From the NCBI GenBank assembly GCA_965372795.1, contig CBDVDR010000014.1:1-64000 (forward strand): a stretch of 64,000 nucleotides of DNA. The letters are read 5' to 3'. The notes under the pieces were generated by a model, which was given only the letters and a program-made list of their open reading frames with translations, was not told where the DNA came from and made no database searches. The DNA is from an uncultured bacterium (GTDB lineage Bacteria; Zixibacteria; MSB-5A5; GN15; FEB-12). Shown here piece after piece: positions 1 to 22,300 of this stretch. The position numbers and the translations under genes are program-made. Numbering within the stretch: the first letter of the stretch is position 1; each line of letters starts with the position of its first letter.

Positions 1-1063
1 TATCACCACCAGGTGAGCTGCCACTACCATCACCTAAATCCATCCTGGCAAAATCTGGATCACCAAAAAGACCAACCATGTTGGTAGTATCCAAACCACC
101 ATTAGAAATCTTCAGGATTGTGACATGAGCTTCATTGTCGAGTTGGCTGGCTGAGTTTGATACCGCTACACCACTGCCACCGGACATTGCCCCGACCGAC
201 ATCCTGGCTCCCGATTCGTCAGCAGAAACAATCCCATCGCAGTCATCATCAACCCCGTTCCCCCAATTAGCTGCAAAGCTCGCACTGCCGTTGAGTGTTA
301 GTGCAAGTATTTCGGTTTGAAATGTACCAGTAGTATTTCTTAGTTGCATGGCACTGGAATCAGAGGTAGAAAAGATTCCGGCTTCAGTCGGTATATCACC
401 AGTTTCAAAATAGGTTTTTAACTGTGATCGGCTGCCGTCAGCAGAAATAGATGCTTTACTGGGTGGGAAAAGGTTGCTTATCTCGCCTTTTTGGGCAGAC
501 CAGACAGATGTTGTTTCACCCAGAGAATTTAGTGAACTAATTCCGTCAGGATTCAAATGCATACTATTCCCAAAACCTATCAACTGAACACTGTTACCCT
601 TCTTCAAACTAATTATAACCGTTGTATCTCCCAATGAATCGACCATGACCAAACCATTATTATCAGTACTTATATTACCCTTAAGCGACGACGCCACAGC
701 CGCCATCGGAACAGATGTTAATCTCGTTCGAGGAGATATGGGTGGATCACTTCCAACTTGAATTTCAAGATAAAGTGAATCGGGACGAACTGGAATTAAA
801 GAAAAATCCAAGGTAGTCGAAGTACCCAGAATTACTGAAAATAATCCTTTGGTTACTTGTACTCCCTGAACTTCCTCCCATAGAACATCGGCGCTTGCCG
901 GGTCTGAATAAAGTCGGAATGTAATGTCAAAAAAACTGTCGACCGCTGAACCAGAGGCATCAAGTAATCGACCTTGGTGTGTTAGTGTCATTGGCACAGA
1001 AACTACCACCGATGCCAACAAAAGAACGGTTAACAAAGTTGTTACTAATAGTGATTTGTGCAT
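1..1063 (-). CDS. Secreted fibre/adhesin-like protein, 3' end beyond the window (absent from the ORF track)
   Basis: Manual translation from the ATG at 1063 stays open to base 2. Signal peptide MHKSLLVTTLLTVLLLASVVVS is followed by VPMTLTHQGRLLDASG..FRLYSD..LWEEVQ..GLFSVILG..YLEIQVGSDPPISPRTRLTSVP, an N-terminal module typical of secreted tail-fibre-like proteins. Upstream are a GAAAGG RBS-like site and TTGACT-N16-TATATT (1179-1152). Confidence 0.8.
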   Translation of the reverse strand, partial: MHKSLLVTTLLTVLLLASVVVSVPMTLTHQGRLLDASGSAVDSFFDITFRLYSDPASADVLWEEVQGVQVTKGLFSVILGTSTTLDFSLIPVRPDSLYLEIQVGSDPPISPRTRLTSVPMAAVASSLKGNISTDNNGLVMVDSLGDTTVIISLKKGNSVQLIGFGNSMHLNPDGISSLNSLGETTSVWSAQKGEISNLFPPSKASISADGSRSQLKTYFETGDIPTEAGIFSTSDSSAMQLRNTTGTFQTEILALTLNGSASFAANWGNGVDDDCDGIVSADESGARMSVGAMSGGSGVAVSNSASQLDNEAHVTILKISNGGLDTTNMVGLFGDPDFARMDLGDGSGSSPGGD

Positions 1064-1223: not shown

Positions 1224-3887
1224 TTAATTCTCTAAATTCTGGTCCCAATTTTTCACCATGACTACTTTTGATTTGTCTGAACTTTGTAAAACAGTATTAA
1301 CAATAAATCGTTGTCCGTTGTTAGTAACATCATAAACTGAACCGGGTTTTGAAGTGCTTACCGGAAACATTTTCTTAACTTCACCGATTTGAAAAGTTGA
1401 TTGACTACCGTCTACCTCTGCTGTCATTATTTCATCTTTGTTATTCAAATAGAATAATTCCTTACCATCACTACGCCATAAGGGACGATCACCTTCGTTG
1501 ATTGAAACTTGCCACTTGGTCCCCGGACCCGGGAAAGGAGTAACATAAACTTGTTCAACACCTGTTTCATTAGAAGCATAAGCCATCCATCTTCCATCGG
1601 GTGAGAATGAAGGATCAAATTCTTCAAAAGGAGTAGTCAAAAATGGATATGGTTCTTTTTCACCAGACACAGTCACAACCCACGTGTCAAACATACTATT
1701 TTCATCATTAAACATAAAAAGTATATATTTACCATCAGGCGACCAGGTGGAGGGCCAACATTCATTTTTACTTTCGAAAACTTTTTCAATTTCACCAAGC
1801 CCTGAAACATTCTTAATATATATTCCTGGTTTTCCAGAACGATCAGAACGGAAGGCAATACGTTTACCATCGGGCGACCAGATAGGTGATGCATCCAAGG
1901 TTGAATCGAAAGTGAACCTTGTTTGAATTTTTCTTTTCACATCATATAACCACAAATCGACATTAGAATTGGCCACATCTTCAATACTAATAACGATTTT
2001 TTCTTCATCGGGTGAATATCTTTGATCATATTGAACTGAAAGTTCTCCAACTGTATCTAAAACTATACCCTCTCTATCAGTCAATAAAACGATTGACCCA
2101 ATATTTAAATCTCCTGATCGGTAGATCAATATCCCCGTATTGGAAACAGTAAAAACTGAACGGCTCCAGTTCGATAAGTAAGTTACTTTCTCAGCTATTG
2201 GAAAAGCATCATCAGTTAATTCCATTGACCCAAGATCAAAAGGATGAGCCATTAGTGATGCTTCTCTTTGGTAGAGAATATATCCATTAGCATAATCGAC
2301 TGTTGATTTAGCTGGGATAATTCGCTTGAAACTATCAGAGTCCAACGAACCAAGACAGATAGCATCTTTCTCTCCTTCAGATCCGCTTCCGGTTCGTGCA
2401 TAAAAAAGAAAATGGTTGCCATCAGGTAAGAATCTAACCCAGCGATGAGTTTTATCACCAATAGTTGTATCCAAAGTCGTTATAGGAACAGACTCCCCGC
2501 CTGCTGCTGATACTTTATGGATAACACCATTAAAGGTGGGAGTGAATAAAATTATATCATCCTGATTCCAGGAACCGTTACGACCGGAAGATGCATTGCT
2601 AATGGTTAAGGTTGGTCCGCCGGTTGCAAGTATTTTTTTCAGCTTCCCTTTTGCAAAAAAAGCGATATAACGACTGTCTGCTGACCAGAAAGGCAAATTT
2701 GCATTTTCAGTCCCCGGCAGTGGAAGGGAGGTTAACGAGTTAAGCGATCTTACCCATAATTGTTTAACAGTGGTCGCTGTATCCTCGGCGACAAAAGCAA
2801 GCTTCAGACCATCTGGTGAGATTGCAATACTACCACCGGAAGTTTCATCAAACTCATTATCATCCGGTGCCAACAGATGTGATTTGACCACTTGTACTGG
2901 TTCAGAATATTCCTGCCATAGAAAATAACTTAAGGCAGAACTGATTAATATAAATACAATCATACCTGTCATCGTGATCATTTCACGTACCGATCGGTTT
3001 TGTGGAATTAATCCTGAAGTTTTAACGACTCCTTTGCCATCAGCAATCCACTGAAGTGATCTTTTTAAATCTCCCGTTGTTTGCCAGCGTTGATCAGGAT
3101 CTTTTGACAAACATTGACTGATAGTCTGCTCAAGCAATGGCGGCAGCATCGGCTGAACTTCTGAAACCGAACGAGGTTCTTCTTTTATTATTGAAGCGAT
3201 CAAAGAGGCTTGTGAATTTCCTGCAAAGGCTCTCGACCCGGTTGCCATCTCATACATAACAGCACCAAAAGCAAAAATATCAGACCTTGCATCAGCTTCC
3301 TGACCTTCCAACTGCTCCGGAGCCATATACTGCATTGTTCCCAAAAGTGTCCCGGTTCCGGTTAAGGGAGTTGTCTGGGTAATGCTGGCGACACCCGGTG
3401 CTGAATTATCGAGCTGAAGTTTTGCCAGTCCAAAATCCAACAATTTTGCTCCGGTACTGGTCAGCATAATGTTGCCGGGCTTAAGATCACGATGGATCAA
3501 TCCCTGTCGATGAGCTTTATCAAGGGCATCAGCTATTTGAATCGAAATATCAAGCAATTCTTTCATCGGAAGAGGACCGTTCTTGATCTTATCTGATAAG
3601 GTCTCACCTTCAATAAATTCCATCACCAAATAATCAATCCCATCCTGTTCACCAACATCATAAAGAATGCATATATTGGGATGATTTAACGATGAAATAG
3701 CTTTGGCTTCCCGTTCAAAGCGGGTTTTGATATCCGGGTTTACTGCAAATGTGGCGGGCAGAACTTTTACAGCTACGATGCGATCAAGGCGGGTGTCTTT
3801 TGCTTTGTAAACTTCCCCCATGCCTCCGGCACCGGCTTGTTCAATTATCTCATAAGGACCTAATTTTTTTCCTGATTCTAAAGCCAT
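1224..3887 (-). CDS. Membrane Hanks-type Ser/Thr protein kinase with C-terminal PD40/TolB-like beta-propellers
   Basis: GAGGMGEVYKA, VAVK, HRDLKPGN, DFG and APE motifs; one TM segment; repeated WSPDG/FSPDG motifs. Confidence 0.95.
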   Translation of the reverse strand: MALESGKKLGPYEIIEQAGAGGMGEVYKAKDTRLDRIVAVKVLPATFAVNPDIKTRFEREAKAISSLNHPNICILYDVGEQDGIDYLVMEFIEGETLSDKIKNGPLPMKELLDISIQIADALDKAHRQGLIHRDLKPGNIMLTSTGAKLLDFGLAKLQLDNSAPGVASITQTTPLTGTGTLLGTMQYMAPEQLEGQEADARSDIFAFGAVMYEMATGSRAFAGNSQASLIASIIKEEPRSVSEVQPMLPPLLEQTISQCLSKDPDQRWQTTGDLKRSLQWIADGKGVVKTSGLIPQNRSVREMITMTGMIVFILISSALSYFLWQEYSEPVQVVKSHLLAPDDNEFDETSGGSIAISPDGLKLAFVAEDTATTVKQLWVRSLNSLTSLPLPGTENANLPFWSADSRYIAFFAKGKLKKILATGGPTLTISNASSGRNGSWNQDDIILFTPTFNGVIHKVSAAGGESVPITTLDTTIGDKTHRWVRFLPDGNHFLFYARTGSGSEGEKDAICLGSLDSDSFKRIIPAKSTVDYANGYILYQREASLMAHPFDLGSMELTDDAFPIAEKVTYLSNWSRSVFTVSNTGILIYRSGDLNIGSIVLLTDREGIVLDTVGELSVQYDQRYSPDEEKIVISIEDVANSNVDLWLYDVKRKIQTRFTFDSTLDASPIWSPDGKRIAFRSDRSGKPGIYIKNVSGLGEIEKVFESKNECWPSTWSPDGKYILFMFNDENSMFDTWVVTVSGEKEPYPFLTTPFEEFDPSFSPDGRWMAYASNETGVEQVYVTPFPGPGTKWQVSINEGDRPLWRSDGKELFYLNNKDEIMTAEVDGSQSTFQIGEVKKMFPVSTSKPGSVYDVTNNGQRFIVNTVLQSSDKSKVVMVKNWDQNLEN

Positions 3888-19378: not shown

Positions 19379-22300
19379 ATGAAAAACAAATCAGACGATA
19401 AAAATTTACTTGTCAAAAAAGACAATGATGATATAATTCCAATTTCCTTTACTCGAAAAGCCTGGAAGGTTTATCTGCAGGTTAGCTTTATTGGTCTGAT
19501 TATTGCAGCCACCATGTGGTATGTTTTGAATACTGGCTCTCAAATTGCAAAACAATATACTCCTCTTATTGATGCTATAATTGAGATCAAATATGAATCA
19601 ACAATAGCTCATTTATGGTTTGAGGAAATCATTAGCGGCGATAAAAACGAAGATATTGAAACAGTGTGGCATCATATAAATAAAGCGGAATGGTATTCAC
19701 TTGCAATGCTTGAGGGAGGACAAAAAGAGGATGTTCATTTTATTGCTCTTAAAGATCCCGATCTTCGAATTGGTATTACAAAAATATTAGAGAATATAAG
19801 AGCGTTCCGTGTTATTGCCAAAGAAAGATATGCTCAATTAAATTTATCAACGGTCGGATCGGACATTGATCAGCGTTTTGATTTTGTGTTCAGAAGTGTC
19901 CTTGATCAAGCTGAAAACGTTGAGACTTCCCTTCATCAGGTTATTAAAAAAGTCAATAAGCGTTTCGAGACGGTTCAATATGCATTGATTGTGTTATGTT
20001 TTCTGCTTGCAGGTTTTATCGGCATGATTTTAAATCGTTATAAACGACATCAAGAGATCAACATGATGAAGCTTAAAGCATCAAATCAAGAATTAATAGC
20101 CAGCGAACAACAACTTAAAGCTACCAACCAGCAGTTATTGGCGAGCGAACAACAACTTAGAGCTACCAACCAGCAGTTAATGGCGAGCGAACAACAACTT
20201 AGAGATACAAATCTACATCTACTTCAATCACAGCAAAAACTATCTTTACATGTTCAACAAACACCGTTAGGAGTAATTCAATGGGATTTAAATTTTAAAG
20301 TTACTGAATGGAATAAATCCGCAGAGAATATTTTTGGGTTCACCTATGAGGAAGCAATCGGCCAGCATGCTTCTGGATTAATTGTTCCAGATTCAGCGAA
20401 GGATGCGGTTGATAAAGTTTGGAATAATCTTTTAGCTCAAAGAAAAGAAACTAAAAGTTCTAATGAGAATGTAACAAAAAACAATAAGACAATTATTTGT
20501 GAATGGTATAATACACCCTTAATTGATGATGAGGGCAAAACAATCGGCGTAGCTTCTTTAGTATTAGACGTCACCAAACGGACACGGTTAGAGAATACAA
20601 TAAGAAAACTTGTTGAAGGCACATCTTCACAATCAGGAAGAGGCTTCTTTGAATCCATGGCCATACACCTTGCTAAAAACCTGGATGCCGACTATACCTT
20701 TATAGGGGAATTTAATAAAGGTCAAGAGGACTTAATAAAAACTATTGCAGTTACTGCTGAAGGAAAACTAGAAGAAAATATTGAATATGGCTTAGTCGAT
20801 ACTCCATGTGAAAACGTAATGGGGAAACATGCCTGTTCGTATACTTCGGGAGTAGCAGATCAATTTCCAAAGGATTTATTATTAAAACAAATGGGTGTTG
20901 AAGGCTATGTTGGAGTTCCTCTTTTTGATTCCAAAAATAAGCCACTGGGTATATTGGCAGCTCTTTATCGAAACCCTATAGATGAAACGGATTTCAAAGA
21001 AGGTATACTTAAAATATTTTCTTCACGCATTGAAAGTGAGATGGAACGTGCCATTGCTGACAAAGCATTACGCGAAAGTGAAAGCAAACTTCTTAAAGCA
21101 CAAAAATTAGCGGGCTTAGGGCATTATGTGTTTGAGGTAAATTCAGGTAATTGGACAAATTCGATTGAACTGGACATTCTTTTCGGCATTGATGAAAATT
21201 TTGTTAGAAACTTAGATGGGTGGCTGGAAATAATTCATCCTGATTTTAAAGAAATAATGTTGAATTACGTACAGGATGATGTTTTAAAACAGCATAATCA
21301 TTTTGATAAAGAATATAAAATTATTGACTTAGCAACCGGCCAGGAAAAGTGGGTTCATGGGTTAGGTAACTTAAAGTTCGATAATGCAGGAAATCCGACT
21401 GAAATGTTTGGGACTATCCAGAACATCACCGAACGCAAGCAGGCTGAGGAAGCCCTTCTGGACAGCCAGGAACGATTCAAGAAACTTTCAAACCTCACTT
21501 TCGAAGGAATAATAATTCACAATAACGGTATTACTGTTGATGTAAACGAATCGCTTACAAAACTATTAGGCTATTCAAGAAATGAAATTATTGGCAAGAA
21601 TATAATTGAGCTATGTGTCCCACCGGAATATCATGCAGCGATTCAAGAGAATATTATAAAAAAAGAAACCAAGCCTTATGAGTTAATAGCCATAAAAAAA
21701 GATGGAACACTAATTCCTGTTGAGGTTGAAGCGAGAGATATAAAAGGTGACGATGATGAATTACGGGTCACCGCAATAAGAGATATTTCTAAACGCAAAC
21801 AGGCAGAGGAAGAGTTGAGAGATAGCGAAGAGAAGTATCGCTCTTTATATGAAGAGACTCCTGCGATGCTTCACTCCATCGACAAACACGGTAAAATAGT
21901 GAGTGTAACCGAAAAGTGGCTGGAAAAACTTGGCTATACAGAAGATGAAGTTCTTGGGCGTAAATCTACAGATTTCCTCACGGATAAATCAAAACAATTT
22001 GCCATTGATGAGGTTCTCCCCAATTTTTTCAAGACCGGACACAGCGAGGATATTCCCTATCAATATGTAAAAAAGAATGGCGATATAATTGATGTTCTTC
22101 TTTCGGCAACCTCAGAGCAAACTAAAGATGGCAAAATTGTTAGATCTATGGCATCATTGATAGACATTACCGAGCGCAAACACGCTGAGGAAGCACTACT
22201 GGAAAGCGAACAGAATTTCCGTCTACTGGTTGAAAATCAAAACGATATGGTCGTCAAGGTGGACACAGAAGGAAGATTCCAGTTTGTCAGCCCTTCCTAT

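Follow-up and report, generated by a model that had tools for sequence, protein, structure and literature searches.

The window analysed here is a stretch of 64,000 nucleotides from an uncultured Zixibacteria bacterium (GenBank assembly GCA_965372795.1, contig CBDVDR010000014.1, positions 1 to 64,000, forward strand) and represents the start of contig C14 of this 3.35-Mb genome (G000), which is 98.65% complete. Its first 1,063 positions carry, on the minus strand, the N-terminal part of a gene whose product resembles the mosaic adhesive trimer (MAT) fibre proteins that end in a Peptidase_S74 (S74) domain. We conclude that the stalk of this MAT-like S74 fibre is probably a micro-mosaic of short peptides borrowed from other protein families, which is kept by selection and inherited rather than being reshuffled by an active cassette system. 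The architecture, which is close to certain, places the gene with the S74 subgroup of MAT-like fibres; surface location, trimer formation and adhesion are properties that we infer for the product.

Organization of the fibre gene

The open reading frame (ORF) at positions 1063..2 (minus strand) encodes 354 aa and is open at the window start. An initial annotation, made from the sequence alone, had placed this ORF and five distinctive peptides within it at coordinates that were all reproduced when recomputed from the translation. The rest of the gene was recovered at the end of contig C16, outside the window, where G000:C16:83116..81671 encodes the remaining 482 aa (C-half) and ends in a stop codon. 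Window bases 1-99 and the last 99 bases of C16 show 94% identity, the final 55 nt of the two contig ends being identical. Both ends fall inside a tandem unit of about 46 aa, two full copies of which were compared and found to be 72% identical in DNA. Because of the 55-nt identical overlap within a repeat, and because the same part order is found in the single-ORF relatives P0003 (764 aa), P0004 (742 aa) and L009 (852-aa open frame), the halves on C14 and C16 were treated as one gene, which would encode at least about 850 aa. The window carries the following parts:

2..1063, minus strand: first 354 aa of the fibre, cut off by the window start and continuing on C16
992..1063, minus strand: hydrophobic leader (signal peptide or membrane anchor), aa 1-24, read from the translation
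689..991, minus strand: conserved beta-rich N-domain, MAT-like, aa ~25-125, with a match to NF053851 and three paralogous N-domains in the genome
620..640, minus strand: scaffold motif DSLGDTT, aa 142-148, conserved as a block in alignment A2 (6 of 7 rows besides its own)
566..610, minus strand: HU beta1-beta2 piece SLKKGNSVQLIGFGN, E=6e-6 against P0008
509-529, minus strand: degenerate second scaffold copy NSLGETT (alignment A2)
461..487, minus strand: piece GEISNLFPP, homologous to GVITDLHPPG of P0004 and P0005 (alignment A2)
353..454, minus strand: YFETGD module including its flanks, aa ~204-237, conserved in P0001, P0004, P0026, P0027 and P0028
380-430, minus strand: YFETGD-type peptide RSQLKTYFETGDIPTEA, coordinates recomputed from the translation
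287..328, minus strand: piece GTFQTEILALTLNG, a word also present in the triple-repeat domain of G000:C18:17361-20132, in L009 (3 copies) and in P0013
227..259, minus strand: MopE-like piece NGVDDDCDGIV, 8/9 identity to repeats of G000:C1:347060-347797
107-145, minus strand: peptide QLDNEAHVTILKI, coordinates recomputed from the translation
2..145, minus strand: first tandem unit of about 46 aa (HVTILKISNGG ... LFGDPDFARMDLGDG) by repeat comparison, in the array that holds the contig break

The stalk had been described as an alternation of loosely repeated scaffold strands with distinct pieces. Of the strands named originally, ASISADGSRSQL and GIFSTSDSSAMQL are flanks of the YFETGD module, and GLFGDPDFARMDL is a separate word; the motif that stands out most clearly as scaffold is DSLGDTT-like. 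Units of the ~46-aa type occur in 2-6 copies each in P0003, P0006 and P0021-P0024, and (I/L)HPP..PG words related to GEISNLFPP are present in other fibres of the phylum. Within the region of these peptides, a TTG-started ORF of 61 aa (135-320, plus strand) lies antisense to the fibre gene; it is probably spurious.

Assignment to the S74 and MAT fibres

The C-half matched Peptidase_S74 (PF13884) at aa 367-418 with E=1e-15 and 58.2 bits (cut-off 22). Ser367 and Lys372, which have the catalytic S.xxxK spacing, are invariant in 7/7 sequences of alignment A1. The Asp of the catalytic motif is replaced by Ser in the fibre gene, and L009 has S-D-x-x-x-K; the SDxxxK motif of S74 fibres is described in PMC10769870. 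At the other end of the protein, aa 12-84 matched the NCBIfam family NF053851 (Bdello_MAT_N, "mosaic adhesive trimer family chimeric fiber protein") with E=3e-10 and 40.1 bits, over profile positions 2-77 of 162 and with a family cut-off of 60. Three more genes of the genome have a MAT-like N-domain with 30-39% identity (G000:C16:28526, plus; G000:C6:139028, plus; G000:C2:310673, minus); their distal parts are unrelated and lack the words of the stalk. Relatives of the S74 fibre were found in 91 of 285 genomes of the phylum (E<=1e-15), and their stalks differ widely, being peptide-mosaic, proline-rich and repetitive, or built of Gly-rich beta-roll-like repeats. In some of these genomes S74 fibre genes stand 3-4 in tandem (G284:C11:7872-14284; G283:C379:3591-7727; G258:C3:27289-33827).

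When the window stalk (229 aa, alignment A2) was modelled as a trimer, the ipSAE was 0.79, the best of three controls being 0.00; among proteins of solved structure, 20 of 30 pairs and 1 of 23 single chains attain this mark, a calibration outside which a model with a shallow 8-row alignment and three copies lies. Contact agreement between the runs is 61% or more, and the partner pLDDT does not fall below 61. The predicted contacts span residues 12-177 and include the HU, YFETGD and FQTEI pieces. The model thus supports a stalk that would trimerise along its length, and it suggests a structural role for the pieces. The initial annotation had located them in variable loops; in the model they would instead lie in the inter-chain core. 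In the ESM Atlas, unnamed clusters were found at scores of 0.77-0.78, and some of these carry gp37_trimer; this serves as a lead only.

Pieces derived from HU

The resemblance of SLKKGNSVQLIGFGN to HU, noted initially, exceeds chance. By BLASTP the piece shares 14/19 residues (E=6e-6) with the beta1-beta2 hairpin of P0008. This natural multi-HU protein had come from a search in which the other half of the gene served as the sole query. Because P0008 was found through the C-half only, the HU match of the window piece amounts to an independent prediction that came true. Near identity is also seen between the piece and the first HU domain of P0018. With Pfam, the window half gave no PF00216 match at E<=1, and phmmer of the stalk against the PDB yielded weak matches to 1HUE (E=0.69) and to succinyl-CoA synthetase alpha (E=0.1), the latter a resemblance on which we do not rely.

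The C-half adds three HU segments, helix 1, the arm and helix 2, and a fifth segment, the C-terminal strand-helix, occurs in orthologs. The C-half matched PF00216 at positions 47-74 of 90 with 27.2 bits (cut-off 22.4) and the NCBIfam HU-beta family with E=2.6e-6. PF00216 was above its cut-off in all five arm-bearing fibres (the C-half, P0003, P0004, P0005 and L009), and none of 8 other S74 fibres of the phylum matched it at E<=1. The arm motif R..R.GRNP.TG is present and invariant in the same five. When the genome's own ORFs were searched by ungapped BLAST, the arm gave 40.8 bits, the maximum of 40 shuffles being 32.6. A complete collinear HU domain of about 90 aa is absent, the match being confined to positions 47-74 and the piece order differing from that of HU. 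Since the pieces are non-collinear and non-contiguous, with the arm directly after helix 1 and other sequence between them, an HU fold is not expected; for the conserved arm a DNA-binding role is possible.

The presence of a piece of a nucleoid protein in a secreted fibre had seemed puzzling. The puzzle is eased by the finding that the pieces are nearer to the HU domains of signal-peptide-bearing proteins than to the HU of their own genome: the arm shares 23-24/35 residues with these secreted HU domains versus 17/26 and 14/29 with the two HU genes of the genome.

A separate observation concerns the surroundings of helix 2. Over 75 residues (C-half aa ~144-218) the reversed protein sequence matches the forward one with 38.1 bits and 31% identity, above every shuffle, so that the C16 half of the fibre contains a protein-level pseudo-palindrome around this helix.

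Pieces derived from other families

In the C-half, 11 consecutive residues are identical to the C-terminus of the genome's own EF-Tu; exact runs in 30 shuffles did not exceed 8-9 residues. P0004 has a similar EF-Tu 11-mer and a weak match to GTP_EFTU_D3 (positions 90-105 of 106, E=0.18). By ungapped BLAST against the genome's ORFs the EF-Tu piece scored 29.5 bits, which lies within the shuffle range.

The YFETGD module also exceeds chance. The 14 viral and 39 genomic loci recovered all matched this part of the query and no other. Of the 16 viral ORFs listed, 15 have the module no more than 28 residues from the beginning of the frame; P0034-type proteins of Flavobacteriales contain repeated internal copies, and in three RHS-type ORFs it comes after the RHS core. 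These loci bear out the initial suggestion of an N-terminal motif in Bacteroidota proteins.

The words FQTEI, FGDPDF and DSFFDI (the first in the form FQTDI) occur in this order in each of three repeats of an unassigned domain in a 924-aa protein encoded by the same genome (G000:C18:17361-20132, minus strand), which is likely to represent the source family of three fibre words. Elsewhere in this protein Pfam detects only DUF7901, and there is a weak dockerin match. The DSFFDI word is also used in L009 and in the N-domain of the window fibre itself. FQTEI and HVT.LKI pieces recur in many retrieved proteins. HVT.LKI, which heads the tandem unit, was found in P0003, P0006, P0021-P0024, P0029, P0032 and the HU-X-HU proteins described below, and it forms the very last residues of three large ORFs.

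The MopE-like piece has an 8/9 match in a MopE-type repeat protein of the same genome but is too short for significance alone, and the window ORF has no PF11617 match at E<=1; among relatives, PF11617 matched P0029 (26.7 bits, cut-off 27) and P0016 weakly.

Chance or compositional resemblance of the pieces, or an ORF created by misassembly, would make the mosaic illusory, and several observations lean in that direction. Exact 6-mers common to the fibre and the genome's ORFs occur at shuffle level, only the HU arm beats shuffles in ungapped BLAST against these ORFs, several Pfam and NCBIfam matches of pieces stay below threshold (E 0.01-0.2), the MopE-like piece by itself matches nothing significantly, and the gene is split across two contigs. 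The above-cut-off PF00216 matches in five fibres and none of eight controls, the 11-residue exact EF-Tu run and the E=6e-6 match to an independently retrieved HU domain are, however, hard to reconcile with chance, and intact orthologous ORFs in other genomes and sources speak against an artefact. We give this explanation almost no credence.

Conservation and exchange of the pieces

Among four orthologs with DNA sequence, the pieces show 75-86% amino-acid identity and the linkers 31%, and codons differ at 48-58% of the identical residues in pieces and linkers alike. Because the pieces are more conserved in protein at equal synonymous divergence, their similarity is attributed to purifying selection on the peptides and not to recent copying. 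The order of helix 1, arm, acidic segment, helix 2 and beta segment in the C-half is collinear in the fibre gene, P0003, P0004, P0005 and L009, and in alignment A1 these sequences differ in the C-half by insertions and deletions of whole modules only. Overall, the C-half pieces keep their order in 5 of 5 closest relatives. This collinearity argues, for the C-half, against the filling of loops with captured fragments that the initial annotation had proposed.

In the N-terminal half, orthologs keep the DSLGDTT scaffold and the pieces behind it differ (alignment A2), as had been anticipated. The slot holds the HU hairpin in the fibre gene, ..HPPG in P0004 and P0005, ..KF.YKQ.FGP in P0001 and P0026, and a PKD-like piece in P0027 and P0028 (K319L-like_PKD, 26.6 and 27.2 bits, cut-off 27). 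Since one slot carries four different pieces, exchange must take place at some rate. Relative to P0004 and P0005, the HU hairpin lies within an insertion of about 38 aa flanked by two scaffold copies. Internal pieces retain the initiator Met of their source, with MNK... in the fibres and a GroES-like start in L047. Because this Met is retained, the pieces are taken to have begun as real gene fragments and not by convergence. Judged from these sequences, an origin from captured gene fragments with occasional module exchange over evolutionary time appears likely.

An enzyme that keeps inserting captured DNA in frame into variable loops had been suggested as the cause of this variation. The differing pieces behind DSLGDTT, the HU piece in an insertion between two scaffold copies and the retained initiator Met would all fit such active micro-cassette diversification. 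Yet RVT_1 (PF00078), the only family searched for, was not found in the genome, and neither integrase, reverse transcriptase, Cas1 nor recombinase was seen among the neighbours, which were judged by their translations. Donor copies of the pieces were not found in the genome by tblastn and BLAST, nor was another gene of this collage type. The EF-Tu piece differs from the genome's own tuf in 6 of 11 codons, all synonymously, synonymous divergence is equal in pieces and linkers, piece boundaries are identical across genera, and the two scaffold copies agree at only 15 of the first 20 nt (hand count). Together with the purifying selection and the collinear C-half, these results make an ongoing cassette mechanism very improbable. 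The claim that the peptides stem from other families is upheld by HU, EF-Tu and the beta-domain family of the same genome; the active capture mechanism attached to it is not.

Two further origins were considered and rejected. Capture from the genome's own genes was discarded on the synonymous differences from its own tuf, and likewise in G285. Selfish in-frame DNA elements, which occur in Rickettsia, were discarded since conservation of the pieces is at the protein and not at the DNA level.

The same words in HU-X-HU proteins and RHS tails

In P0007-P0018 a leader precedes a complete HU domain, which is followed by a variable middle and, in most cases, by another HU domain. In P0007-P0020 the leader is fused directly to an intact HU domain that keeps its Met, and the second HU usually stands at the C-terminus. 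These proteins are mostly unnamed in the source databases, a few being called HU-beta or nucleoid DNA-binding protein. The middles of P0007-P0018 use fibre words and have weak matches to eCIS_core (E=0.012), the T4 gp19 tail tube (E=0.026) and CIS_tube (E=0.24). In P0013 and P0016, a DKATP..L word is presumed to be Hcp-like, a family that no search returned.

RHS-type ORFs in three metagenome-assembled genomes (MAGs), L047 (1890 aa), L052 (2047 aa) and L079 (1711 aa), carry tails of fibre words after the RHS core:

L047:4812-5672, L052:5800-6141 and L079:4652-5134, plus strand: RHS word tails with YFETGD, EF-Tu pieces, a GroES-start-like end and an HU helix-1 word; two of the ORFs end directly behind an HVTL.K word

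In L047, from a Phycisphaerae MAG, the tail comprises 287 aa of words with Gly-rich linkers between them. It matched EF-Tu (109-130 of 394, E=2.4e-4; about E=1e-3 against EF-Tu in the PDB), TIGR04563 (2-17 of 53, E=2.8e-5) and GroES (1-14 of 96, E=0.086). A further word of L047 we presume to be an RRM motif, although this family was not returned by any search. The EF-Tu piece of L047 matches an E. coli-type EF-Tu chain from the PDB at 15/16 residues and the EF-Tu of its own genome at 13/16; from the latter it differs in 3 residues and, at 8 of the 13 shared ones, in the codon. The L052 tail matched GTP_EFTU_D3 at 15-33 of 106 with E=7.7e-4.

From these sequences one could propose that the peptides copy signature stretches of HU, EF-Tu, GroES and other abundant, conserved proteins of other cells, and that these proteins or their ligands would thereby be bound, captured or poisoned, possibly by fragment complementation, beta-strand pairing or, through the HU arm, DNA binding. 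The use of the same words in three unrelated architectures and several phyla fits this idea, as do the RHS tails of L047 and L052 with their EF-Tu, GroES and TIGR04563 segments, the greater closeness of the L047 piece to E. coli-type EF-Tu than to its own and of the fibre arm to secreted HU domains than to its own HU, and the strong protein-level conservation of the pieces. Against it, the pieces lie buried in the core of the modelled trimer, several matches are weak (E 0.01-0.2) and cover short stretches, HU, EF-Tu and GroES are cytoplasmic and the fibre extracellular, binding of the peptides to targets is hypothetical, and only conserved motifs get recognised, which introduces an ascertainment bias. 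We therefore regard functional mimicry by collage display as rather unlikely.

An extension of this idea would unite MAT-like fibres, HU-X-HU proteins and RHS toxin C-termini in a cross-phylum collage class that shares one vocabulary of 8-35-aa peptides selected for binding their source proteins or ligands. The sources may be HU, EF-Tu, GroES, a ribbon-helix-helix protein and contractile-tail tube proteins, often represented by the very N- or C-terminus, and in other cells or in debris the peptides may capture or poison their partners or assemble together with them. We consider such a class improbable.

Proposed model and points against it

According to the explanation that we prefer, the gene would encode a chromosomal, phage-tail-fibre-like surface fibre of the MAT/S74 kind. 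Its leader would be followed by an N-domain, the probable anchor to the cell, then by a long stalk of three intertwined chains and finally by the C-terminal S74. The S74 domain would act as an intramolecular chaperone that drives trimerisation and then cleaves itself off. The stalk would consist of modules of 8-35 aa divided by turns rich in Asp, Ser, Gly and Thr. Some of these modules would be remnants of foreign proteins. Four would stem from HU (helix 1, helix 2, beta1-beta2 hairpin and arm), one from EF-Tu (the final hairpin of domain 3) and three words from a beta-domain family of the same genome; the widespread YFETGD module would be a further one. Purifying selection would retain them as building blocks of the trimer core, and differences between orthologs would arise by rare insertion, deletion, duplication or exchange of whole modules at the repeated scaffold motifs.

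Several points weigh against this explanation. The N-domain match to NF053851 stays below the family cut-off, and the evidence is entirely computational. The trimer model lies outside the calibration of the method, and an AlphaFold2 monomer of the C-half, built on a 7-row alignment, had a mean pLDDT of 41 and no usable fold. A purely structural role of the pieces leaves unexplained why the DNA-contacting arm motif is retained letter for letter and why other phyla use the same words in secreted HU-X-HU proteins and at the C-termini of RHS proteins. The slot behind DSLGDTT with its four different pieces among relatives fits inherited modules less well. Finally, the continuity of C14 and C16 was deduced from the overlap and the part order, and the gene length, including the number of repeat units, is a lower bound only.

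Genomic neighbourhood

Directly upstream of the fibre gene, an ORF of 887 aa (1224-3887, minus strand) encodes, judged from its translation, a putative Ser/Thr kinase followed by a membrane segment and a TolB-like beta-propeller region. The neighbours, identified by translation, are this kinase-like gene, two ORFs without assignment and ORFs rich in CxxCH haem motifs; phage genes are not evident. At 20072-20208 the window contains a tandem repeat with a 42-bp unit in about 3 copies (86-91% matches).

Comparison with known systems

Motif-string and general-term literature searches revealed no published description of such a protein, the supplement of PMC10769870 on MAT-like proteins being outside the comparison; the general terms returned only papers on plant and animal transposons and on peptide mimicry.

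Diversity-generating retroelements and cassette-based antigenic variation likewise produce variable distal parts of receptor-binding or fibre proteins. In our case, however, a reverse transcriptase, a template repeat and silent cassettes were not found, and the variation was seen between species.

HU and IHF (DNABII, PF00216) share with the fibre the highly conserved and recognisable helix 1, helix 2, beta1-beta2 hairpin and arm, but in the fibre gene these pieces are neither collinear nor contiguous, and the arm follows directly on helix 1. The secreted HU-X-HU proteins P0007-P0020 are closer in HU type and in their words, which include HVT.L[KR], DSFFDI, D.DCDG, acidic D.D.DG loops and an EF-Tu-like REGG.T; they differ in having whole HU domains at both ends and in lacking S74 and the MAT N-domain. 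The HU-HIG proteins described in the HU superfamily paper PMC5499826 are intracellular, unlike the proteins described here. Owing to its intact arm, the fibre might be a candidate extracellular DNA-binding adhesin.

Phage tail fibres and spikes (PF13884) have the same S74 domain with Ser and Lys at catalytic spacing, and modular evolution by segment exchange is usual in them. In contrast to these, the window gene has no phage genes seen nearby and an N-terminal leader, and its exchanged units are far shorter.

The closest counterparts are the MAT fibres of Bdellovibrio bacteriovorus, in particular the S74 subgroup. With these (PMC10769870) the fibre analysed here shares a chromosomal, non-prophage gene, a leader ahead of a beta-rich N-domain (about 130 aa in the MAT fibres), a long stalk, predicted here to be trimeric, a C-terminal S74 and several paralogs that have the N-domain in common and differ in their distal parts. 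The window fibre differs in its N-domain match below the family cut-off and in a host that is not a known predator. The main difference concerns the level of mosaicism: according to that paper, whole tip domains are swapped on beta-helical prisms in MAT fibres, whereas in the window fibre the variation lies one level lower, in peptides of 8-35 aa within the stalk, several of which would have been taken from cytoplasmic housekeeping proteins such as HU and EF-Tu and later frozen by selection. If these words are only structural, they offer a natural example of fragments of unrelated folds re-used as strands of a trimeric fibre, which bears on protein evolution and fibre engineering. If they are functional mimics, as the RHS toxin tails hint, they would represent an undescribed bacterial way to target universally conserved proteins.

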